In this document: piece by piece, positions 7,171-15,548 of the stretch | Numbering within the stretch: position 1 is the stretch's first letter | Layout of the letters: the number at the start of each line of letters is the position of its first letter | DNA from: Escherichia phage vB_EcoS_swi2 | Reading direction: 5' to 3' (one strand) | Sequence record: NC_054649.1 | DNA length: 47,611 nucleotides | Notes under the pieces: model-generated | Databases searched by the model: none | Seen by the model: the letters and a program-made list of their open reading frames with translations, nothing else | What the model was told of the DNA's origin: nothing | Program-made: the position numbers and the translations under genes

Positions 7171-9547
7171 ACTCTGTTGCTCTCCTGTTGGTATTAAAGT
7201 TTCTTGAGATAGATTGGCTCATCGGTCCGCCTTCATTCATATCGGATATAAATGTCTCAATAGTTATCGAGCCATCACCGTTATCAGTGGCTCTGCTTGT
7301 TGCGCTAGCATTGCTTGAATTATTGTAAACATTATTATAGACCACAACTCCGCCACCTCCACCGGAAATATCCTTATTGCTGATAACCTTTCCTGAGTTG
7401 CCAGGTATCATGTATTGCCTGCCTGTACTCGCCTGGAATATTTCTGGTGCATTTCCCTCGCCCACTTCGTACATACTTCCTGCACTAACAGGGCCACCAT
7501 TTTTTCGCTTGCCAGCAATTCCCATCGCCAGCGCCCCGAGAACAGCACCTACCCCAATTGCAGCCGCTCCACCGAAAGAACCGATTGATGCGACGATTGC
7601 CGCAGGAGTCCATGCTGCCGTTGTGGTGGCTGCCGCTGCAGTTGATGCTGCTGTTGTGGTTGCCAGTCCTGCCGTTTGCGCCGCTGTGGTGGTAGCTGTT
7701 GCCGCAACCTGCGCAGTCTGCCCCATAACGGCGGATTTAACCCACTGAACGCCCATTTCAACAAAGCTGTTTACCAGAGAATTCAGCACCGTAGAGCCGA
7801 GGCTGCGCATTGCATCCTGAACGCTCATTGTGCCTGTGAGCAATCCAGTGATGCTGTTTGATGCTGCACTCATCGCTGAATCAAGCGCCGTGCCGAACAA
7901 TTGCGCCCCGAGGCTTTGCTGCTGCCATTCAGCCCACATCGCATCCATTCTCTGCTGGCGATACTGCGCTTCAATTGCTGCGCGAGCCTGCTCAATCTCC
8001 GTGATTTTCTGCGGATATGCTGCGGCGTAGGCGTCAAGGTCAGCCATGCGTTGCTGGTATTCGCTATCAATGCCAGCCGTTGGCGACGCAATGGCGCGTA
8101 ATCCCTGATATGATTGTTCTACTCGCTGTCTTTCCTTCTCAGCTGCTGCCTGCTCCTTCAGTGCATTCTTCTGGTCCCAAATCTTGGCAGCGTACTCGCC
8201 AGCCAGTTTTATCTGCTCCTGAGTTGCCGACTTGCCAAGCGATTGCTGCGCGTTGAGGATGGCTTGCTCGCGGGATAGTTCGCTGGTAGATGTGGCATTG
8301 AGCATGGTTTGCTGGCGTAATTTCTCCAGCTTTTCAGCCACTGACTCAGCTTGCCGTTCTTCTGCACTTTTTCCTGTTGCTTTTTTCTTTTTCTCTTTCT
8401 CTGCTGCTTTTGGCACTGTCAAGTGCGCCTGCGCCTTTGCCGCTTCCCCTGTCGATTTGGTGACAGCATCCATATCCGCGACCAATGTGGCCGCCTGATT
8501 TGCTACCGCCGCTATGGCTTGATTCTGCGCAGCCCAACCATCAATTCCAATCCATGACCATGTTCTTGCTCTACGACTGAACATTTCTGCTGTTGATGTC
8601 AAATCAGAAATAACCTCTGCCGCACCTATGGTCTGACCAGTTAGTCTGTTGATTGCTGAGGTAATAGAGTCAATAACTGAAACAAAGGTAGAACTGGCTC
8701 CGGTTGCTTCGTTTATGCTTGCTATCATTTTTGCAAATGATGTTTCAAGACTGCCAGTCGCCTGAGATATAGAGCGCGGTAGCTTTGCGAACTCAGCATT
8801 GACGACACTCGTCCTGTCCTGAATGGCATTCAGTGCATCTTCTGCTGTCAGTTTGCCATCGAGCATTCTTGCGCGAAGTTCACCCATTGAAATGCCAAGA
8901 CCCGCCGCAATCTGGCGAGCAAGCTCAGGCATCTGTTCAAGGATGGAGTTAAATTCTTCGGCGCGGATTGTGCCAGATGCGATTGACTGACCGAACTGAC
9001 GTAATGCATTCGCCATTTCTTCAGTTGATGACCCACCTATTCGACCTATTTTTTGCAGGGTATCTGTAAGGTTCAGAACCTGCGCATTTGTCGCTCCAGC
9101 CTCTTTCAGTGATGACGTCAATGTTTCCCACAACTTCGTAGTGTCACTGAGGCTTGCGCCAGTGGTCGAGGCGATATTTGCCAGTGTGCTGAATGTTTCG
9201 TTCGCGGTTTTCGCATCAGTTGACAGGCGAGCAATCCTTGCCTGAAGCTGAGTCATGTTATCGGCAACCTCAAGGAATCGCTTTCCCCATTCGATAATCA
9301 GTGACACGGATATTGCGCCAGCCAGCATCGACATGCTGGTTTTAAGCCCTGAAGCTGCGCCGCCAGCATTCTTCATTCCGCTGCCAGCATTGCGCGCGCC
9401 TTTATCCAGCTTGTTGAACTCTCCTGTAGTCTTGTTTAGTGATGATTCAAGGTCATCTAAAGTCTTATTGGCTGTTGTCGCGCCAGCTTTCAGGCCTTTA
9501 ACATCCATCCCGACTTCATAGACAATTCCGCCGACTTCTTCAGCCAT
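7169..9547 (-). CDS. Tail tape measure protein
   Basis: 792 aa, Ala/Gln-rich predicted coiled-coil over most of length, Ala/Thr/Gly-rich hydrophobic segment near C-terminus, position between chaperone and minor tail genes. Confidence 0.8.
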   Translation of the reverse strand: MAEEVGGIVYEVGMDVKGLKAGATTANKTLDDLESSLNKTTGEFNKLDKGARNAGSGMKNAGGAASGLKTSMSMLAGAISVSLIIEWGKRFLEVADNMTQLQARIARLSTDAKTANETFSTLANIASTTGASLSDTTKLWETLTSSLKEAGATNAQVLNLTDTLQKIGRIGGSSTEEMANALRQFGQSIASGTIRAEEFNSILEQMPELARQIAAGLGISMGELRARMLDGKLTAEDALNAIQDRTSVVNAEFAKLPRSISQATGSLETSFAKMIASINEATGASSTFVSVIDSITSAINRLTGQTIGAAEVISDLTSTAEMFSRRARTWSWIGIDGWAAQNQAIAAVANQAATLVADMDAVTKSTGEAAKAQAHLTVPKAAEKEKKKKATGKSAEERQAESVAEKLEKLRQQTMLNATSTSELSREQAILNAQQSLGKSATQEQIKLAGEYAAKIWDQKNALKEQAAAEKERQRVEQSYQGLRAIASPTAGIDSEYQQRMADLDAYAAAYPQKITEIEQARAAIEAQYRQQRMDAMWAEWQQQSLGAQLFGTALDSAMSAASNSITGLLTGTMSVQDAMRSLGSTVLNSLVNSFVEMGVQWVKSAVMGQTAQVAATATTTAAQTAGLATTTAASTAAAATTTAAWTPAAIVASIGSFGGAAAIGVGAVLGALAMGIAGKRKNGGPVSAGSMYEVGEGNAPEIFQASTGRQYMIPGNSGKVISNKDISGGGGGVVVYNNVYNNSSNASATSRATDNGDGSITIETFISDMNEGGPMSQSISRNFNTNRRATE

Positions 9548-10293
9548 TATGTGTTCCTCGCTTTTTTCGCTTTGCGTTCAGCCAGTGCCTTCATGCGCTC
9601 ACGGTCTGCTTTAGCCTGATCGTACTCTGCCGCGCGTTCTTCTTTCGTTAACCCTTTCGGCTCTGGATATTTATTCTTAATCATCATCTGAAACTCTGTC
9701 ATGGACAGGTTTTCAGCCTCATCGCGCGTCATGTCGAAATGCGTGCGTGCTGAGATGATGTATTGCGATGCATGAAATTCGTTTGTGGTTTTCTTGCCTT
9801 GCTCTTCCAGACGCTCAGGAACTTTGAGTGGTGACTTGCCGATGATGCCGTGCTCCATTAATGAGCGGGCAATCTCAATAATTCCACCTGTTCCCCCTGG
9901 CAAATGCCCAGTGCCGCCAATTGGCATTACTCCCGGCACATATCTCACACCACGCGGAGTTGGCTTCCATCCACCAATCAGCACGGAAATATCATCTTCA
10001 CAGCATGACTGCATGACGATGTAGGCGGCGCTCAGTACATGGCGACCATACACGGGCTTGCTGATGGTCTTCATGACCTGCATCTGCGCGCCAAATGGCA
10101 GGTATTCGACGTGCTGCAATGGCGCAACATAATCAATGCCATTGAGCTTAGCGTACACCTCGACGATTTCCTTTGGTGTGCCGATTTCATTCATGGCGCG
10201 GAATGATGGCTTAAAGAAAAAACTCCTGTCAGAAAGCGAGATGCGCATCTCCCCGATTTCTGTTAGTGGCGTGCGATTGCTCATGTTTTGCAT
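9547..10293 (-). CDS. Putative tail assembly chaperone (G/T-equivalent by position)
   Basis: 248 aa ORF immediately upstream of tape measure gene; exact start uncertain (several in-frame ATGs). Confidence 0.4.
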   Translation of the reverse strand: MQNMSNRTPLTEIGEMRISLSDRSFFFKPSFRAMNEIGTPKEIVEVYAKLNGIDYVAPLQHVEYLPFGAQMQVMKTISKPVYGRHVLSAAYIVMQSCCEDDISVLIGGWKPTPRGVRYVPGVMPIGGTGHLPGGTGGIIEIARSLMEHGIIGKSPLKVPERLEEQGKKTTNEFHASQYIISARTHFDMTRDEAENLSMTEFQMMIKNKYPEPKGLTKEERAAEYDQAKADRERMKALAERKAKKARNT

Positions 10294-10313
10294 CCTGAAT
10301 TTGACTGATGTTG

Positions 10314-10319
10314 ATTATA
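10314..10319 (-). promoter_or_regulatory. Minus-strand -10 element (TATAAT) upstream of the chaperone gene
   Basis: Perfect TATAAT on minus strand about 20 nt upstream of ATG 10293. Confidence 0.3.
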
Positions 10320-10333
10320 TCATCTCAGTGGTG

Positions 10334-10362
10334 TTGACACCTGCTAGGTGGTGATGTAGATT
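10334..10362 (+). promoter_or_regulatory. Sigma70-type promoter TTGACA-N17-TAGATT
   Basis: -35 TTGACA 10334-10339, 17 nt spacer ending gtgatg, -10 TAGATT 10357-10362; 35 nt upstream of ORF 10398. Confidence 0.6.
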
Positions 10363-10397
10363 CAAGTCATGGAAGCAGATGAGGAATGAGGTGATTT

Positions 10398-10712
10398 ATG
10401 ATTAATAAGAAAATTATTATTTGTGGTTTGTCAGCGGTATTTCTGATTGGCGCAATGCAGGTAGCTGTCATGCTTGGGTTTATGAAGCCTCTATTCATGT
10501 TCAGTTATAGCGGAGCAATACAGAGCGTATCACTGTTATTTGTTATTGGTTTAGTTATTTTTGTGTACCTTTTGCCTGCATTTGTGGCGCTACAACGCAA
10601 GCATGTAAACACAACAGCAATTTGCGTGCTGAATATTTTTGCTGGCTGGTGTTTCTTTGGTTGGGTGGCTGCACTGGTTTGGGCTTTGGTTAAAAGTGGC
10701 GACAAGAAATGA
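10398..10712 (+). CDS. Small integral membrane protein (accessory gene; candidate superinfection-exclusion type protein)
   Basis: 104 aa with several long hydrophobic segments; own promoter; plus strand inside minus-strand tail cluster. Confidence 0.5.
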   Translation: MINKKIIICGLSAVFLIGAMQVAVMLGFMKPLFMFSYSGAIQSVSLLFVIGLVIFVYLLPAFVALQRKHVNTTAICVLNIFAGWCFFGWVAALVWALVKSGDKK

Positions 10713-10852
10713 ACGAACAAACAAAAGCTGACCTGACTTTCTACACTGAATTGTATGTTGATGCTGGTTATGACTACGAAGAAGCAGAGCGAATGGCAAA
10801 AGACCTGCTTCGTGTGATTGGTGTGATTTTTGATGAGGATAAGGTGATATGA
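10709..10852 (+). CDS. Small acidic hypothetical protein
   Basis: 47 aa ORF with ATGA start/stop overlaps to both neighbours. Confidence 0.35.
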   Translation: MNEQTKADLTFYTELYVDAGYDYEEAERMAKDLLRVIGVIFDEDKVI

Positions 10853-11049
10853 GCCAGTGGATTAAGTGTAGTGATAGGATGCCTGAAGAAGGCGAGATGG
10901 TTCTCACAGCATTTCGTGGTGTCGTTAGAACTGCGGTATGTAAAGTTATCGACAACATTGGCAGTAAGATTTTTGTTAGTGAATTAGAACGCTGTCACGG
11001 CATTCCAGCTACCCATTGGGCCAATCCACCAGAACCACCACAAGAATAA
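10849..11049 (+). CDS. Hypothetical protein (DUF551-like N-terminus MSQWIKCSDRMPEEG)
   Basis: 66 aa ORF, ATGA coupled, followed by terminator. Confidence 0.4.
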   Translation: MSQWIKCSDRMPEEGEMVLTAFRGVVRTAVCKVIDNIGSKIFVSELERCHGIPATHWANPPEPPQE

Positions 11050-11052
11050 AAC

Positions 11053-11078
11053 AAAGCCCCTTTCGGGGCTTTTTCTTT
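11053..11078. terminator. Bidirectional terminator hairpin
   Basis: aaagcccc tttc ggggcttt followed by T-run; between convergent plus accessory operon and major tail gene. Confidence 0.6.
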
Positions 11079-11079
11079 A

Positions 11080-11796
11080 TCAGGATACAGTGCAAGCTGT
11101 ACTGATGATAATTTCAGGGTCAGTAGATGAATCAGTCACTGTAACGGTATATACGCCAGCCGTAGGACTTGCCAGCGATGCGCCTGATTCACCACCAACA
11201 ACTACGCCATCTTTGCGCCACACGTAAGTGTAAGGAGAGATGCCACCTTCAACAACAACCGTTAACGGGCTTCCAGTCGTGCCAGTTGGTTGCAGGTCAG
11301 TAGTGAACTTCAGAGGCTCAAGGCTTTCGACGGTAACGCTGTCAGAATCATACACCTTAAACTCAAGGCTTCCGGTAACGATGTCGTTAGTGCCGCCTTC
11401 GTAGCTGATGCTGGTGATGTTGCAGTACGCGGTAACGATAGTCGCACCAGTCACCTCGCGAACCCACAAGGAAGGCTGGCGACGAGCTTTCAGTTCAGTG
11501 GTGTAAATCTCGACCAGACGATGGAAGCCAAACTCATCGCTCGGGTCATTCTTGCGGATTTCCACTTCTGCGCTGATGGTCATATCAGAGCTGGTAACGA
11601 GAGTGGAAACAAAGCCGCCAGCGGTATCAGCTTCAGACGTGGTAGTCTGCGGTGAGTAGTCAACACCCTTACTGGTGGTTGAGCCTAAATACTTCCAGTC
11701 TTCTGCCTCCGGAACTGCGTCACCGCATCCTTCAGCAAGGAACAGTCGAGTCATACGACCGACCAGAACGCCCTTATCATTTGCACAAATAGCCAT
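11080..11796 (-). CDS. Major tail protein with C-terminal Ig-like domain
   Basis: 238 aa, position at head of tail operon, C-terminal segment TVVVEGGISPYTYVWRKDGVVVGG...GVYTVTVTDSS resembles Big_2-type Ig domain as in lambda V. Confidence 0.6.
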   Translation of the reverse strand: MAICANDKGVLVGRMTRLFLAEGCGDAVPEAEDWKYLGSTTSKGVDYSPQTTTSEADTAGGFVSTLVTSSDMTISAEVEIRKNDPSDEFGFHRLVEIYTTELKARRQPSLWVREVTGATIVTAYCNITSISYEGGTNDIVTGSLEFKVYDSDSVTVESLEPLKFTTDLQPTGTTGSPLTVVVEGGISPYTYVWRKDGVVVGGESGASLASPTAGVYTVTVTDSSTDPEIIISTACTVS

Positions 11797-11831
11797 TTCG
11801 ATCTCCGAATTGTGTTAGCTGCTAACGTGGT

Positions 11832-11840
11832 GATTATATC
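11832..11840 (-). promoter_or_regulatory. Extended -10 promoter element (TGnTATAAT) on minus strand upstream of major tail gene
   Basis: Minus-strand TGATATAAT about 35 nt upstream of ATG 11796. Confidence 0.35.
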
Positions 11841-11847
11841 ACAGGTG

Positions 11848-11876
11848 TTGACAGTGATTATTTTGTGGTGTAGATT
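11848..11876 (+). promoter_or_regulatory. Sigma70-type promoter TTGACA-N17-TAGATT driving the noncoding/tRNA region
   Basis: -35 TTGACA 11848-11853, spacer ends gtggtg, -10 TAGATT 11871-11876; no plus-strand ORF follows, tRNA lies downstream. Confidence 0.5.
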
Positions 11877-12344
11877 GTATTTCAGATAGTTTTCGTGAGC
11901 GACTTTGCGGACTTTTTAGAAACTGATCACAAAGATAAATGCAAACGAAGAAATGTATCTGGCCGTAGCTTAACAGCTAAACACAAGTGAGGTATTCCAG
12001 TTCCTCATCAACGAATCTTGCGCACTGGCCCGGTGTGATTAATAATGGGCACACAACGGAAAGAGCATTACTGGTGACGGAGACTAGCGATTAGCTATAT
12101 GCGAAAGTTCTAGAAGCCAAGGCGGTTCGACTCCGCAAGTGCTCTTTCCGGTGTGGTGAATGCGCAGGCTGATGCGCGCAGGAGAGCTTCGGAAGAACAA
12201 GGTGCCTGTATACAAGCCGGAGATCAGCACCGGCCACCACAATACTTAACATCCAGCATTATCGCAATCATATGTAGGGGTATGTATGGGTTACGGGGCT
12301 GGATGTTAAGAAAGCACGCTGGCAATGCTTAAACCAGCACTTAT

Positions 12345-12421
12345 GGACGCGTAGCTTAATTGGTTAAAGCAACCGACTCATAATCGGCTGATTGAAGGTT
12401 CAAATCCGTCCGTGTCCACCA
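12345..12421 (+). tRNA. tRNA-Met (anticodon CAT; could alternatively be Ile2-type)
   Basis: Acceptor GGACGCG pairs with CGTGTCC, D-stem GCTT/AAGC, anticodon loop CTCATAA, T-loop TTCAAAT, 3-prime CCA encoded; terminator follows. Confidence 0.75.
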
Positions 12422-12427
12422 AATTAA

Positions 12428-12452
12428 AAGCCGCTTTATGCGGCTTTATTTA
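12428..12452. terminator. Terminator hairpin after tRNA
   Basis: gccgc tttat gcggc followed by tttatttatttc. Confidence 0.55.
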
Positions 12453-12866
12453 TTTCACGACCCGTAAAAGCAACTCATGCACAGGACGTTTTTCTTCCGT
12501 CAGCATTGGCCTACCAAGTGGCGCTTGCAACTGGATGTAGTTAACGCATGAATCAATCGGATGCGTCTTGATGTATTCGATAATCTCCAGCGCCTTCGCA
12601 TCAACATCAGCAACGTTGTACTGGCCTTGCTTGCCAACAACATACAGCGAGAAATAGAAGTCACCGCCGAGTCCATCCATCACCTGCGTGCCACCATTGG
12701 ATTGCAGAACAATAAATTGCTCACTTCCATCTCCGGTATCATTCCAGAACTGCAATTGCGAAGTCCAGCCATCATACAATCCGGCATCCTGAAGATATGC
12801 ATCAACCAGCTCAAGCATGTTCATATTAAACCCCAATATTGCAATATCGATGCACATATCATACAC
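12450..12866 (-). CDS. Putative tail completion / head-tail joining protein
   Basis: 138 aa ORF in neck-gene region between capsid and tail modules; function by position only. Confidence 0.35.
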   Translation of the reverse strand: MYDMCIDIAILGFNMNMLELVDAYLQDAGLYDGWTSQLQFWNDTGDGSEQFIVLQSNGGTQVMDGLGGDFYFSLYVVGKQGQYNVADVDAKALEIIEYIKTHPIDSCVNYIQLQAPLGRPMLTEEKRPVHELLLRVVK

Positions 12867-12994
12867 TACCTATGTCACGTAGGCGTGGAACCCGAAACGA
12901 CACACAGGCAACAATGAATTTAACGCCCTTGTCAGTATGGTTTGTTGCAACCATGTTCCACCTGACAGGGGCGTTTCCCTTTTGGAGTGAGTAA

Positions 12995-13486
12995 ATGATT
13001 TCAGAGCGGGATTACATAGCAATCGCGTCAAGGGTTAAATACGACCCGATTACCGGATTGTTCACCTGGGCTGTAAGTTGCGGGAAAATATCAAAAGGTG
13101 ATATTGCAAATTATCACAACGACGCAGGATACATAACACTTGGGAAGAAAAGATTAAGGGCGCACCGAGTGGCTTGGTTTATCCATTATGGATATGTCCC
13201 TGAGCATGAAATTGATCACATAAACAATATTCGTGATGACAATAGAATTTCAAACCTGAGGGAGGCCAGTGACTGCGAGAACGCAAGGAACACAAAGATA
13301 TCTAAATCAAACACGTCTGGATATAAAGGAGTTCATTTTTGCAAGTACACGGGAAAATGGAGAGCCACGGTAAAGATGCATGGGAAAAGCTATCATCTTG
13401 GTAGGTTTTCAGACAAAGAAGCCGCCCATAAAGCCTATTGCAAAAAAGTAGATGAACTGTTTTTGGAGTTCGCAAACCACGGCTAA
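12995..13486 (+). CDS. HNH homing endonuclease with C-terminal AP2 DNA-binding domain
   Basis: HNH_3-type motif AHRVAW...EIDHINNIRDDNRISNLR followed by AP2-like SGYKGVHF...GKWRATV...GKSYHLGRF; opposite strand to flanking structural genes; AT-rich. Confidence 0.8.
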   Translation: MISERDYIAIASRVKYDPITGLFTWAVSCGKISKGDIANYHNDAGYITLGKKRLRAHRVAWFIHYGYVPEHEIDHINNIRDDNRISNLREASDCENARNTKISKSNTSGYKGVHFCKYTGKWRATVKMHGKSYHLGRFSDKEAAHKAYCKKVDELFLEFANHG

Positions 13487-13944
13487 ATCTTCATTTCTTT
13501 TTTTATCACTGAATCAACGAGGCTGCGAGTTTTATCGGCAGCCTTTGTTAAGAATCTAGGTTCAGCATTAGGCGACCAGTACGTGCCATTACCATTACTG
13601 CGTGGTTTACCTGCAAGTTTACCGCTGGCATTGTGGACGTACAGCGCATATTTCGCAGAATAGCCAACCTTGCCAGTGATTCGCGTTCCGCTAACTTCCA
13701 CAGTATCAAACTGACTGTTAATCAGCGTTGATGTGTCAATTGGCGTCAACGTGGCTGATTCGGTGCGGATGATATATGTCGCTGACTTCAGAGCACGCAC
13801 CGCTTTTGTGGCGATTATCTCGTCCACAATCTGCGATGTTCTGGCGATGGCTTCGTTAATACCTTTGAGTTTGGCTGGCATGTTAGCACCACTCCATCCA
13901 TCCAAAGCATTTTTTGTATGCCCCACCACAGGATAAATCATCAC
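13483..13944 (-). CDS. Putative neck / head-tail connector protein (HK97 gp10-like)
   Basis: 153 aa ORF in head-tail joining region; family assignment tentative. Confidence 0.4.
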   Translation of the reverse strand: MMIYPVVGHTKNALDGWSGANMPAKLKGINEAIARTSQIVDEIIATKAVRALKSATYIIRTESATLTPIDTSTLINSQFDTVEVSGTRITGKVGYSAKYALYVHNASGKLAGKPRSNGNGTYWSPNAEPRFLTKAADKTRSLVDSVIKKEMKI

Positions 13945-14079
13945 TTTTTCTTGCGGCCTTGGATGCCTTTCTTTTCCAGTACCTGCCAGACGGTTTTACA
14001 TACGCACTAAACCAGATTCTTGAACCTGATTTGTTTCTGCTCTGTTTGTGGTTCTTGAGATTTAATTTTTCATCTTTCA

Positions 14080-14427
14080 TTATGTAATCAACGCAAAGTC
14101 AGGTGGCTCAGCGCGACTGAACGTATTGCCATAGTTAATCACATTCAGAATCTGGTTTGCGCCAGCCGACAGCGGGTCATCTTCTGTCACCGTGCCAATT
14201 ATGATGTAATCACCTACCTTAGCACCAGTGTATTCTGTCCAGAAAGTATTCTTCTGCACAATCTCATTACCTTTCGCGTCAGTCGATACATCATCGTTAA
14301 AGCCATAATCGCACATGATGCTTACTGGCGCATCAAAAGTTGGCTTGCCGTACTTGTCAGTGCCGCTTTTATGCCAGATGGTGCATGGTTGCGTATAGCT
14401 CCAGTTAGCCAGCGAAGTCATTTGCAT
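14080..14427 (-). CDS. Putative head-tail adaptor protein
   Basis: 115 aa ORF, overlapping-stop arrangement with neighbours in neck cluster. Confidence 0.35.
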   Translation of the reverse strand: MQMTSLANWSYTQPCTIWHKSGTDKYGKPTFDAPVSIMCDYGFNDDVSTDAKGNEIVQKNTFWTEYTGAKVGDYIIIGTVTEDDPLSAGANQILNVINYGNTFSRAEPPDFALIT

Positions 14428-14846
14428 TTACTCCCACGCACAACCGCAAACCACGGTTTACCGCTTCCATCAGGGTCTTCCACCAAATCGCCAGTGCATC
14501 CGGCTGTATCCAGTAGCTTCATCTGATTGTACAGCGCCACCCACGGCTTACTGCCATACGCGAATGATTGTGATGCGCCAGACGGTGCGCTCTGACTGGT
14601 AACGTAGCGACCAGCGGTATTTGCGCTAATCAGAATGGAAGCCCACAGCATGATCGCATTTTGTCGGCATTCATCGTTTGGATAGTTCAGCTCAAGGCAT
14701 TCACTGATTGATGCCACAAGACACAGAATGCCAGACGCATCCGTTGTGGTGATAGTCATCCCGCGCGATGCCATCTGACTAACCAGTTCTTCAGGTGTTG
14801 GTGCTGTCATTTCTCTTTGACTCCCGGACTTTCCACCACATTTCAA
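14418..14846 (-). CDS. Hypothetical structural protein
   Basis: 142 aa ORF in neck cluster. Confidence 0.35.
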   Translation of the reverse strand: MKCGGKSGSQREMTAPTPEELVSQMASRGMTITTTDASGILCLVASISECLELNYPNDECRQNAIMLWASILISANTAGRYVTSQSAPSGASQSFAYGSKPWVALYNQMKLLDTAGCTGDLVEDPDGSGKPWFAVVRGSKCK

Positions 14847-15075
14847 ACAGATTCTTTATTACCAGAGACAGAGCGCCGAGGATTGACGCTACTGCCGCCC
14901 ACTCCGTCAGGCTGTGTGGAATCATAGCCTCAAAATAAGACTGCGTGACAGGCGTTTGCTCTGCAACTTTCAGGCCAATGCCAGTACCAATAGAGGCATA
15001 TCCAGCCTTGTCAATCACCTGTCCTGTCGTTCCGCTTATAATCTGCTCTGCGACTTGCCTTAGTGCTCCGTTCAT
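14791..15075 (-). CDS. Hypothetical protein
   Basis: 94 aa ORF in neck cluster. Confidence 0.3.
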   Translation of the reverse strand: MNGALRQVAEQIISGTTGQVIDKAGYASIGTGIGLKVAEQTPVTQSYFEAMIPHSLTEWAAVASILGALSLVIKNLFEMWWKVRESKRNDSTNT

Positions 15076-15107
15076 TGTGTGTCTCGCTGATGATATGTTT
15101 CCAGCAC

Positions 15108-15548
15108 TTATAGATTTGAATCAGCGAAAAAACAATGGCGACCACGCCAAGAATAATGTCCAATTTCGCCGCCCCATTTAAAAGTGATGGAAAGGATGAA
15201 CAGATGGGTGCCGATAATAATAAATGCGTACTGCGCATGAAGCGGCGTTTCTACAGGCGTGATAAATTCCCATACGAATGACTCTATCGCTACCAGCCAT
15301 TCGTAAAGGCTCATCGTCAGCACGCAGAGAGCCATCTTTGTACTTTTGCGCAGTGCAATAGCCTGGAACAACCAGACCATAGACTGCGCAAGGTAATACA
15401 GATATTCGGCGGGAAATGAATCAACAAGCACCCATCCAAGATACACAGACATCACCATTGCCGGAATGAACACCAGAAACGCAACCATGCCCGTACAGGC
15501 GAAACCCAGCACATACATGATCATGATGGCAACGTCTGCGCCGAACAT
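15108..15548 (-). CDS. Integral membrane protein
   Basis: 146 aa with multiple hydrophobic helices. Confidence 0.4.
   Translation of the reverse strand: MFGADVAIMIMYVLGFACTGMVAFLVFIPAMVMSVYLGWVLVDSFPAEYLYYLAQSMVWLFQAIALRKSTKMALCVLTMSLYEWLVAIESFVWEFITPVETPLHAQYAFIIIGTHLFILSITFKWGGEIGHYSWRGRHCFFADSNL

Follow-up and report, generated by a model that had tools for sequence, protein, structure and literature searches.

An enterobacterial phage RNA family that joins an arm complementary to host tmRNA to a tmRNA-type tag template

Transfer-messenger RNA (tmRNA) and its partner SmpB constitute the main bacterial system of ribosome rescue and protein quality control and are a drug target. Phages are known to depend on tmRNA (P22 hybrids, Mu) and occasionally carry whole tmRNAs, and prophages encode trans-acting regulators of host small RNAs (sRNAs) with 5′-terminal seeds, such as AgvB and AsxR of enterohaemorrhagic Escherichia coli (EHEC) prophages. 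The 2014 survey of the tmRNA Website found phage tmRNAs only in mycobacteriophages and Bacillus phage G, and the 2025 update of the same resource, for which a complete tRNA-like domain is required, holds 79 phage sequences. RNA of the type carried by mycobacteriophage DS6A is thought to interfere with host trans-translation (PMC4131195), and natural two-piece tmRNAs indicate that a base-paired, bimolecular tmRNA can work (PMC11915505). Here we describe a noncoding locus of Escherichia phage vB_EcoS_swi2 (NC_054649.1), the 47,611-nucleotide (nt) stretch of DNA that was analysed as a whole (the window) and in whose positions all coordinates are given unless stated otherwise. The conserved core of the RNA encoded at this locus (11887-12050) is a tmRNA-derived chimera that consists of an arm antisense to host tmRNA, a linker, a tag template of its own, a pseudoknot and a hairpin, and that has no acceptor domain. 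It lies upstream of the elements described in an initial annotation made from the sequence alone, which missed it, and no description of this RNA was found in the searchable full-text literature.

The template half of the core follows the layout of tmRNA closely. An A/U-rich linker of 22 nt (11919-11940, plus strand), recognised from invariant alignment columns, ends in an invariant AUAAAU and leads into a frame of 10 codons and a stop (11941-11973, plus strand; GCA AAC GAA GAA ATG TAT CTG GCC GTA GCT TAA, encoding ANEEMYLAVA), which has neither a start codon nor a Shine-Dalgarno sequence; together with the AUAAAU upstream context, the template stretch spans 11935-11973. Nucleotides U(-5) and A(-4) of the linker are the counterparts of U85 and A86, the main frame-setting nucleotides of tmRNA (PMC2481249). 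The phage sequence AUAAAU|GCA agrees with the Rfam consensus upstream of the resume codon both in tmRNA (AUAAuU|GCa) and in tmRNA_permuted (aUAAaU|GCa). The RF00023 model aligns to 11931-11992 (model positions 83-140) with 13.0 bits and E = 0.0024, and the same stretch in the window and in phage Bas81 scores 17.3-20.9 bits with tmRNA_permuted (RF04321) and 13 bits with beta_tmRNA. In profile searches that covered 0.92 Mb of ssrA-bearing genomic loci from 120 species, 46 of the 47 matches of the template profile fell inside ssrA 80-138, all of them in sense orientation.

Homologous loci were collected and are referred to by L-numbers (L001, Bas80; L002, Bas81; L003, HK620; and so on). After blastn filtering, the invariant ATAAAT|GCAAACGA followed by exactly 10 codons and a stop was present in all phage homologs (34/34). 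A 35th locus, L098, carries a tag of bacterial type (ANDEKFALAA); it was taken as an ordinary tmRNA and left out. The tags are ANEEMYLAVA (the window and HK620), ANEEVYLAVA, ANEEMYLAAA, ANDEQFLAVA, ANDDQFLAVA, ANDNTFLAVA, ANDNVFLAVA, ANDTQYLAVA, ANDDVVLMAA, ANDDLMLMAA and ANDDLMLAAA, for comparison with ANDENYALAA of E. coli tmRNA. Across 19 distinct template sequences, entropy at the third codon position was 0.97, against 0.55 and 0.42 at the other two, and synonymous changes accounted for 278/885 pairwise codon differences in the tag frame compared with 17/820 and 63/810 in the other frames, both of which are broken by stops. The synonymous changes are of the types GCN, GAY, TAY and CTG/TTG, and the terminal codon varies between TAA, TAG and TGA. 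The tag frame evolves in the manner of coding sequence and is apparently translated.

The stop codon of the frame lies in the loop of a hairpin (TAGCT-TAAC-AGCTA, 11966-11979, plus strand) that resembles helix 5 of tmRNA; three of its five pairs change on both sides among the homologs, and 70% of alignment cells are paired. It is followed by a predicted H-type pseudoknot (11987-12020, plus strand) with stem 1 formed by 11987-11992/12003-12008 and stem 2 by 11997-12000/12017-12020, the window copy having one mismatch in stem 2. Pairing across homologs was 95% for stem 1 and 94% for stem 2, compared with 36-49% for slid controls, and compensatory changes were seen at 6/10 pairs, a degree of covariation reached by 0/500 shuffles. 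Variants of stem 1 include GTGAGG/CCTCAT, GCAAGG/CCTTGT and ACGGGG/CCCCGC, and those of stem 2 CCAG/CTGG, CCGA/TCGG and CCAA/TTGG, so that, as far as alignments can tell, the downstream H-type pseudoknot is proven by covariation. The core closes with a hairpin (12028-12050, plus strand) around a conserved loop, GGTGTGATTAATAA, whose stem varies with pairing kept (GCCC/GGGC, GCCCAC/GTGGGC, GGCGGGAG/CTCCCGCC, CCCTGA/TCAGGG and CCCGT/ACGGG), as judged by eye and without a formal score. The 5′ part of its loop may pair with CACAC (12050-12054) to give a second pseudoknot (12028-12054). Upstream of the template no counterpart of pseudoknot 1 (PK1) of tmRNA was found; the sequence there, for which no structure is predicted, is instead antisense to the 3′ strand of host PK1.

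This upstream region, the antisense arm (11887-11918, plus strand; TAGTTTTCGT-GA-GCGACT-TTGCGG-A-CTTTTTA), is complementary to tmRNA nt 68-106 in four collinear blocks. The best match in a blastn-short search against ssrA of E. coli MG1655 was TAGTTTTCGT, the perfect reverse complement of ssrA nt 97-106 (tag codons 3-6); GCGACT pairs with nt 86-91 (AGUC|GC, around the resume codon), TTTGCGG with nt 75-81, the 3′ strand of PK1 helix 4, and CTTTTTA with nt 68-74. As a whole, the target takes in loop 3 of PK1 and its 3′ strand, then the A-rich linker and, in the tag frame, the resume codon with tag codons 1-6. The duplex between the window arm and ssrA was predicted at -40.6 kcal/mol, compared with -27.5 +/- 3.3 kcal/mol for shuffles (alignment z = 6.5), and most leaders gave -40 to -49 kcal/mol, compared with -27 to -32 +/- 3 kcal/mol for shuffled leaders; pairing of the arm with the RNA's own template was mostly at background (-21 to -32 kcal/mol). 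Cofolding with full-length tmRNA gave a gain of -10.2 kcal/mol, against -2.2 +/- 1.1 kcal/mol for shuffled leaders, and the arm alone is predicted to be unstructured. Of 95 matches of the leader profile (nhmmer), 94 fell inside ssrA 68-106, every one of the 94 antisense.

The sequence GTTTTCG is kept in 23/23 distinct leaders, and arm variants with GCGATTAT still pair with the target through G.U. Leaders of the lambdoid type and those of Felixounavirus keep different subsets of the reverse complement of ssrA 68-106, a pattern that suggests descent from a full antisense copy, with selection for pairing still at work. The target segment is near-invariant in ssrA of 118 species, chiefly Enterobacterales but also some Pasteurellales and Orbales, and its conservation in Enterobacterales fits the host range of the carrier phages. 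The extended complementarity to host tmRNA is specific and found across the family, as would be expected of a trans-acting antisense RNA. Other 7-8-mer matches to ssrA (each E ~6), and the complementarity of the loop of the conserved hairpin (UGAUUAA) to tmRNA nt 236-242, were taken as chance.

The arm is also where transcription would begin. A sigma-70 promoter (11848-11876, plus strand) with TTGACA at 11848-11853, a 17-nt spacer and TAGATT at 11871-11876 matches the consensus at 10/12 positions and is the consensus promoter that the initial annotation had placed at 11848. Promoter-like sites in the region are not above chance (5 found compared with 3.8 expected); this promoter itself is kept in relatives L001, L002, L038, L091, L032 and L045. 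Judged from the position of the -10 element, transcription would start at about 11883, 3-4 nt 5′ of the antisense arm. The Felixounavirus copy has a different promoter (TTGACA-17-TATAGT), which ends about 7 nt before GTTTTCG. As two unrelated promoters both put the transcription start directly before the arm, there is no room for a 5′ acceptor strand.

Sensitive blastn searches with 11877-12250 as the query matched 687 phage records, far beyond chance and about 1.4% of deposited phage genomes. The carriers are siphophages, the Lederbergvirus HK620, Felixounavirus, Ackermannviridae and the N4-like Gamaleyavirus. The full length is common to P22-like HK620 and lambdoid HK633 (88% identity), and the 5′ half to Klebsiella siphophages, IME11 (Gamaleyavirus), VpaE1 (Felixounavirus) and Ackermannviridae (Det7, KP6, Magnus). 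The core is also carried by 214/5426 complete E. coli genomes (4%), including O26 prophages of Shiga toxin-producing E. coli (STEC), without annotation by the Prokaryotic Genome Annotation Pipeline (PGAP) in the matches listed. Annotation is absent in nearly all phage records, and some of them mis-annotate small proteins here.

A canonical tRNA-like domain was absent from all homologs examined, and ARAGORN reported tRNAs but no tmRNA in 31 homolog loci. At gathering thresholds Rfam matched tRNA only, and the GOLLD, ROOL, Y RNA and group I intron models gave no match. A hidden tRNA-like domain was sought at the 5′ and 3′ ends, in two structured cassettes that follow the core (cassette A and module B, described below) and in permuted arrangements, and none of these had the identity elements. 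The G3:U70 pair is absent, the GAGCATT/AGTGCTC and TGTGGTG/CACCACA stems having G3-C70 or U3-A70, and the candidate stems are not followed by CCA, the next (discriminator) base varying between A, G, C and T. The RNA falls outside the tmRNA family, yet on present evidence it is one that would work like the template half of a tmRNA. A tmRNA reported by ARAGORN at 12047-12421 (tag AKAVRLRKCSFRCGECAG) was rejected as an artefact, as it couples the 3′ half of the tRNA at this locus (anticodon CAT) to sequence further upstream and yields a nonsense tag. Pipelines based on ARAGORN may yield a false tmRNA here and miss the real template 100 nt upstream.

We tentatively propose, with confidence that falls short of even, that this RNA pairs with host tmRNA and puts its own tag template in place of that of the host. 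Still more cautiously, we suggest that it represents a guide-plus-template RNA of many enterobacterial phage families that would dock on host tmRNA and swap in a phage tag template while rescue continues. In this scheme the unstructured 5′ arm would anneal to the single-stranded template region of host tmRNA, opening PK1 helix 4 and masking the host tag template, and the phage template would then hang off the host tRNA-like domain about where the host template sits. After rescue by host Ala-tmRNA/SmpB, ribosomes would continue on the phage template, so that rescued proteins would receive ...LAVA, ...LMAA or ...LAAA instead of ...ALAA, the host ssrA degron; rescue would be kept and the tag re-written by a bimolecular, hijacked tmRNA. 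Given a complete, apparently translated template without an acceptor domain, use of the host tRNA-like domain and SmpB via pairing would be the most economical arrangement. The lambda-immP22 hybrid phage needs tmRNA activity and does not need the tag (PMC2481249), which favours re-programming over destruction. Several points weigh against template substitution. The target being near-invariant, co-variation between arm and host ssrA is uninformative; some arms pair moderately with their own template (for example, -36 kcal/mol in L104), and the most divergent leaders (L044, L089 and L051) are weakly complementary to E. coli ssrA (z = 2-4). Structural constraint, and not translation, could account in part for the constant tag length, and Rfam scores for the template (13-21 bits) are far below the gathering threshold of 47. 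To our knowledge, template substitution across a non-covalent duplex of about 35 base pairs (bp) is without precedent, and RNase III could instead cleave the duplex between arm and tmRNA, in which case the RNA would act as an inhibitor.

The main rival, which is possible although we regard it as doubtful, is a purely antisense inhibitor or decoy. Its arm would block or destroy the tmRNA template (for example, through RNase III), shutting down tagging or trans-translation, and the sense template, hairpin and pseudoknot would be untranslated and serve as a decoy for S1, SmpB or RNase R, or as a stabiliser. The antisense evidence for such an inhibitor is identical to that for template substitution, the phage RNA has no tRNA-like domain, and there is a mirror-image precedent in the tRNA-like-domain-only RNA of mycobacteriophage DS6A, which is of a kind shown to inhibit tmRNA (PMC4131195). 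However, an untranslated template would not be expected to change like translated sequence, as the tag frame does in its synonymous GCN, GAY, TAY and CTG/TTG codons and its TAA/TAG/TGA stops, nor to keep the frame-setting U(-5) and A(-4) invariant; blocking the template without replacing it would trap ribosomes already holding tmRNA, and P22-like hybrid phages require trans-translation (PMC2481249). Improbable, in our view, is an autonomous non-canonical tmRNA in which cassette A or module B is processed, CCA-added and aminoacylated and serves as the tRNA-like domain for the template of the same RNA, in cis or as two pieces. Cassette A folds as an acceptor-like helix with a long arm and a T-arm, module B as a cloverleaf with a T-like hairpin abutting the 3′ strand, natural two-piece tmRNAs exist (PMC11915505), and the RF04321 matches, although weak (17-21 bits), point the same way. 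The identity elements are those that should have been present and are not: there is no G3:U70 and no encoded CCA, and the discriminator base varies. Moreover, the T-arm insert is missing in most homologs and module B in Felixounavirus and Det7, RNase P would cut away the template, which is 5′ of the acceptor strand, the ARAGORN search for tmRNA was empty in 31 loci, and the antisense arm would be left unexplained.

A functionless relic, be it a decayed ssrA or tRNA pseudogene or a structured spacer or processing leader of a tRNA operon spread by recombination, would fit the mosaic cassettes shuffled among phages and the varying tRNA content of the locus among relatives. Comparative evidence makes this reading unlikely, and we give it very little weight: the core is kept in 687 phage records across unrelated families, with compensatory changes in the pseudoknot and coding-type constraint on the tag frame, complementarity to the host has been maintained while the RNA's own template diverged, and two independent promoters are positioned exactly at the arm. 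Hardly credible is a minus-strand gene for a small protein, such as the 121-aa hypothetical protein given in the Bas80 record (phrog_26260); hypothetical proteins are annotated in Bas80 and some other records, and the Bas80 open reading frame (ORF) matches phrog_26260 with E = 1.8e-5, but the window has no minus-strand ORF of at least 30 aa across 11900-12084, the majority of records leave the stretch without annotation, indels distinguish the relatives, and the RNA stems covary. The stretch that matches the PHROG is precisely the conserved template and pseudoknot in reverse translation, and phrog_26260 was probably built from spurious ORF calls on this RNA. In Bas80, positions 1724-1850 on the minus strand correspond to window 11930-12060, and the phrog_26260 match is confined to them. 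Protein coding on either strand of the locus was rejected.

The window comes from a siphophage of about 47 kb with relatives among Escherichia (Bas80, Bas81), Salmonella (STGO-35-1, Akira) and Shigella (Sf11) phages. The locus lies on the plus strand and is flanked on both sides by minus-strand tail genes, a major tail protein gene, as annotated in relatives (11080-11796), and a tail terminator gene (12450-12866; PF23842). It is a single transcription unit that runs from the promoter through a structured RNA of about 360 nt and a tRNA(CAT) to a terminator, and in this respect the autonomous promoter-to-terminator noncoding unit of the initial annotation, on the strand opposite the tail genes, was borne out. 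Its terminator, placed there at 12428, is an intrinsic one (12427-12455, plus strand) with an 8-bp stem (12427-12447) that contains 5 G-C pairs and is followed by a T-run. The roughly 550 bp described as free of credible ORFs have a longest ORF of 59 aa between promoter and terminator; inside 11877-12344 the largest ORFs are 59, 53 and 52 aa, none of which has a PHROG match or is conserved in relatives. The tRNA (12345-12421, plus strand), described as having anticodon CAT and an encoded CCA, was recovered as such by ARAGORN, which labels it Met, and scored 63.4 bits with the Rfam tRNA model (RF00005). The orthologue in relatives is annotated as tRNA-Met or tRNA-Ile, and the nearest matches in E. 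coli genomes carry tRNA-Ile annotation; it may be a lysidine-type tRNA-Ile2 reading AUA.

The site of the locus differs between phage groups. In HK620 and two inspected E. coli prophage loci it lies between the Q antiterminator gene with pR′ and the holin gene, the gap in which Stx phages carry ileZ-argN-argO and stx; in lambdoid prophages (L003, L128, L129, L036 and L099) the array fills this gap, after pR′ and a terminator-like hairpin. The late terminator tQ was placed after the array by the authors of HK620, and given that position the RNA might also be made in lysogens. The Felixounavirus copy is inside a tRNA array, and in Det7, IME11 and the relatives of the window the copy is upstream of tRNA genes. 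The tRNA cargo 3′ of the RNA varies among close relatives (L001, L002, L038, L091 and L124 compared with the window), being CAT alone, Ser(GCT) with Arg(TCT), Arg with CAT, Ser-Thr-Arg-CAT, or none, and the locus is an exchange hotspot for tRNAs and RNA cassettes. Arg-UCU and CAU (possibly Ile2) read codons that are rare in E. coli (AGA and AUA), and the neighbouring tRNAs, CAU here and Arg-UCU in relatives, fit an "anti-stalling" theme.

Between core and tRNA lie the cassettes to which the initial annotation had drawn attention. Cassette A (12050-12160, plus strand; minimum free energy (MFE) -42.6, z = -3.4) is a long closing helix, CACAAC-GGNA-AGAGCATT paired with AGTGCTCT-TTCC-GTTGTG, around a variable insert of 29-95 nt. 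The copy in the window has CACAAC-GGAA-AGAGCATT opposite AGTGCTCT-TTCC-GGTGTG. The closing stem of the cassette covaries (AGAGCGCTG/AAGCGCTCT, ATGACACTT/GAGTGTCAT, AGCTGCTTG/CAGGCAGCT and AGGCAATTC/GAGTTGCCT). In the MFE fold, the window insert is a three-way junction that includes a T-like hairpin of 4 bp (12121-12137). The insert holds the T-arm-like motif GGTTCGACTCC, found at 12124-12134, one base from where it had been placed, and the proposed flanks GAGCATT (12063-12069) and AGTGCTC (12138-12144), which do pair (7 pairs, one U.G). An extra structured RNA is thus present as claimed, with a three-way junction and T-arm-like hairpin; as the main feature of the locus it did not hold up, since this T-arm and acceptor element (12061-12146), while real, sits in a variable, shuffled cassette, and the insert that contains it is wholly different in HK620, KP6, IME11 and Det7. 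The suggestion of a degenerate tRNA found no support, with no ARAGORN call and no Rfam tRNA match at E <= 10 for 12063-12144. That of a processed leader may hold in part, as transcription and processing of the unit together with the tRNA are probable; the leader is, however, a conserved and functional RNA in its own right. Another cassette A ends exactly at the G of GTTTTCG in many prophages, siphophages and Ackermannviridae, an arrangement that suggests processing that frees the arm.

Module B (12150-12243, plus strand; fold z = -2.0) folds into a four-way junction that resembles a cloverleaf. A stem of 7 bp (TGTGGTG/CACCACA) closes it, and inside follow a D-like hairpin (GCGC-AGGCTGAT-GCGC), then a variable arm and last a T-like hairpin (GCCGG-AGATCAGCA-CCGGC); the loops of the two hairpins are complementary to each other (GCUGAU/AUCAGC). 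Among 12 variants (93-148 nt in total), conserved flanks surround variable inserts, with a few wobble or compensatory changes, and the module is missing from the Felixounavirus and Det7 copies. The D-like loop AGGCUGAU (12168-12175) contains tmRNA nt 3-9 (GGCUGAU), the T-like loop complementary to it is AGAUCAGCA (12221-12229), and the 3′ strand contains CCACCA; these tmRNA-like pieces may be what is left of a rearranged tmRNA acceptor, or they may be coincidental. The T-like hairpin GCCGGAGAUCAGCACCGG (12216-12233) shares 16/18 bases with positions 30-47 of the E. coli sRNA rydB (RF00118), a match of 13.7 bits and E = 2.9 that may be chance, or rydB may be the remnant of such a cassette. Further downstream, the reported 12-nt inverted repeat is real, at 12246-12257/12298-12309 and again one base from its given position, and belongs to a spacer hairpin (12246-12309, plus strand; 13 bp and an inner stem; MFE -34.2, z = -4.0) in which Bas80 shows a compensatory change from C-G to U-A (TTAATATCCAGC/GCTGGATATTAA). 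The window is itself a mosaic, the 5′ 300 nt being 96% identical to L058 and module B being of the HK620 type. The tRNA-shaped cassettes are probably processing or stabilising modules for release from tRNA-containing transcripts.

A further recurrent cassette, GTGGGTAACAACGGGCAT...GCTGGGTTGATCTCCAGCCGTCAGCTCCACGAAAC, is found in L036, Bas81 (L002, about 1900-2040) and L026. The part GTGGGTAACAACGGGCAT...CAGCTCCAC in the same three loci was considered as a tmRNA T-arm and 3′ acceptor on account of a likeness by eye to E. coli tmRNA (GCGGGTTCAACTCCCGCCAGCTCCACCA), and was rejected, having no Rfam support at E <= 1. In L103 and L093 (Felixounavirus-like), just 3′ of the template unit, a tRNA-like sequence, ACGGGGCGTATCTCAGCGGTCTTCTAAACCGCCG...GCGGGTTCGAGTCCTGCCGCCTCGACCA, replaces the tRNA-Arg(TCT) of VpaE1; it has a TCT anticodon-like loop and a good T-arm, is without an ARAGORN call, and is perhaps a non-canonical tRNA or one in decay. 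Past the tail terminator gene, a plus-strand gene (12995-13486) for a 163-aa protein with HNH (PF13392, E = 9e-16) and AP2 endonuclease domains lies among minus-strand virion structural genes and has the appearance of a free-standing homing endonuclease gene. Another block of "moron" type on the plus strand, between minus-strand structural genes (10398-11072), encodes a superinfection-immunity protein (PF14373, 10398-10712), a 47-aa ORF and a DUF551 protein (10849-11049), and is closed by a bidirectional terminator at 11053-11072.

If template substitution holds, this would be the first known virus re-writing of the trans-translation tag. An RNA that targets tmRNA and brings a substitute template would add a new layer of phage-host conflict and would be a new use of RNA-RNA pairing to re-programme a ribonucleoprotein machine. 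The family offers hundreds of natural sequences for probing how the ribosome chooses a resume codon, and it bears on whether a template needs a covalent link to the tRNA-like domain. The RNA is present in groups often considered for therapy (Felixounavirus, Kuttervirus and Klebsiella siphophages).

Compared with known systems, the accessory cassettes recall YrlA-type Y RNAs (PMC4201824), in which a long closing helix is likewise joined to hairpins like a T-arm and a D-arm; this comparison extends to cassette A and module B alone, which, unlike Y RNAs, have variable inserts and no Rfam match, and no rsr (Ro60) gene was found among the ORFs inspected in window 9000-15500. The anti-sRNA regulators AgvB and AsxR are likewise short RNAs of phage origin that use an unstructured 5′ end to pair with a host RNA of high abundance; the present RNA differs in that its target is tmRNA, its pairing comprises about 30 bp in four blocks, and its arm is fused to a surrogate copy of the sequence that it masks. 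The full tmRNAs of mycobacteriophages (Bxz1 group) and Bacillus phage G and the DS6A RNA are phage-borne tmRNA relatives as well, whereas the present RNA occurs in enterobacterial phages; DS6A keeps the tRNA-like half only and the RNA described here, its mirror image, the template half only, together with the antisense arm.

In two-piece tmRNAs (alpha- and beta-proteobacteria and cyanobacteria; RF04321 and RF01849-51), acceptor and template are on two base-paired RNAs, and the beta-type tags (model consensus ANDE.FAMAA) resemble the phage ...LMAA tags. A single gene yields both of these pieces, however, and the coding piece keeps the 5′ acceptor strand, whereas the partner of the phage RNA would be a complete host tmRNA, paired at its template region. 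With tmRNA itself (SsrA, RF00023) the phage RNA shares the upstream AUAAnU with U(-5) and A(-4), the GCA resume codon, a 10-codon AND....A frame, a stop in the loop of a helix-5-like hairpin and an H-type pseudoknot directly after it. In contrast to tmRNA, it has no tRNA-like domain formed by its ends, no G3:U70, CCA or PK1, and 13 bits against the gathering threshold of 47; its 5′ arm is antisense to tmRNA itself, and it sits in phages and prophages and is not a core gene. The anatomy, conservation, covariation, coding-type constraint and specific complementarity are read from the sequences compared; the mechanism set out here is a proposal.

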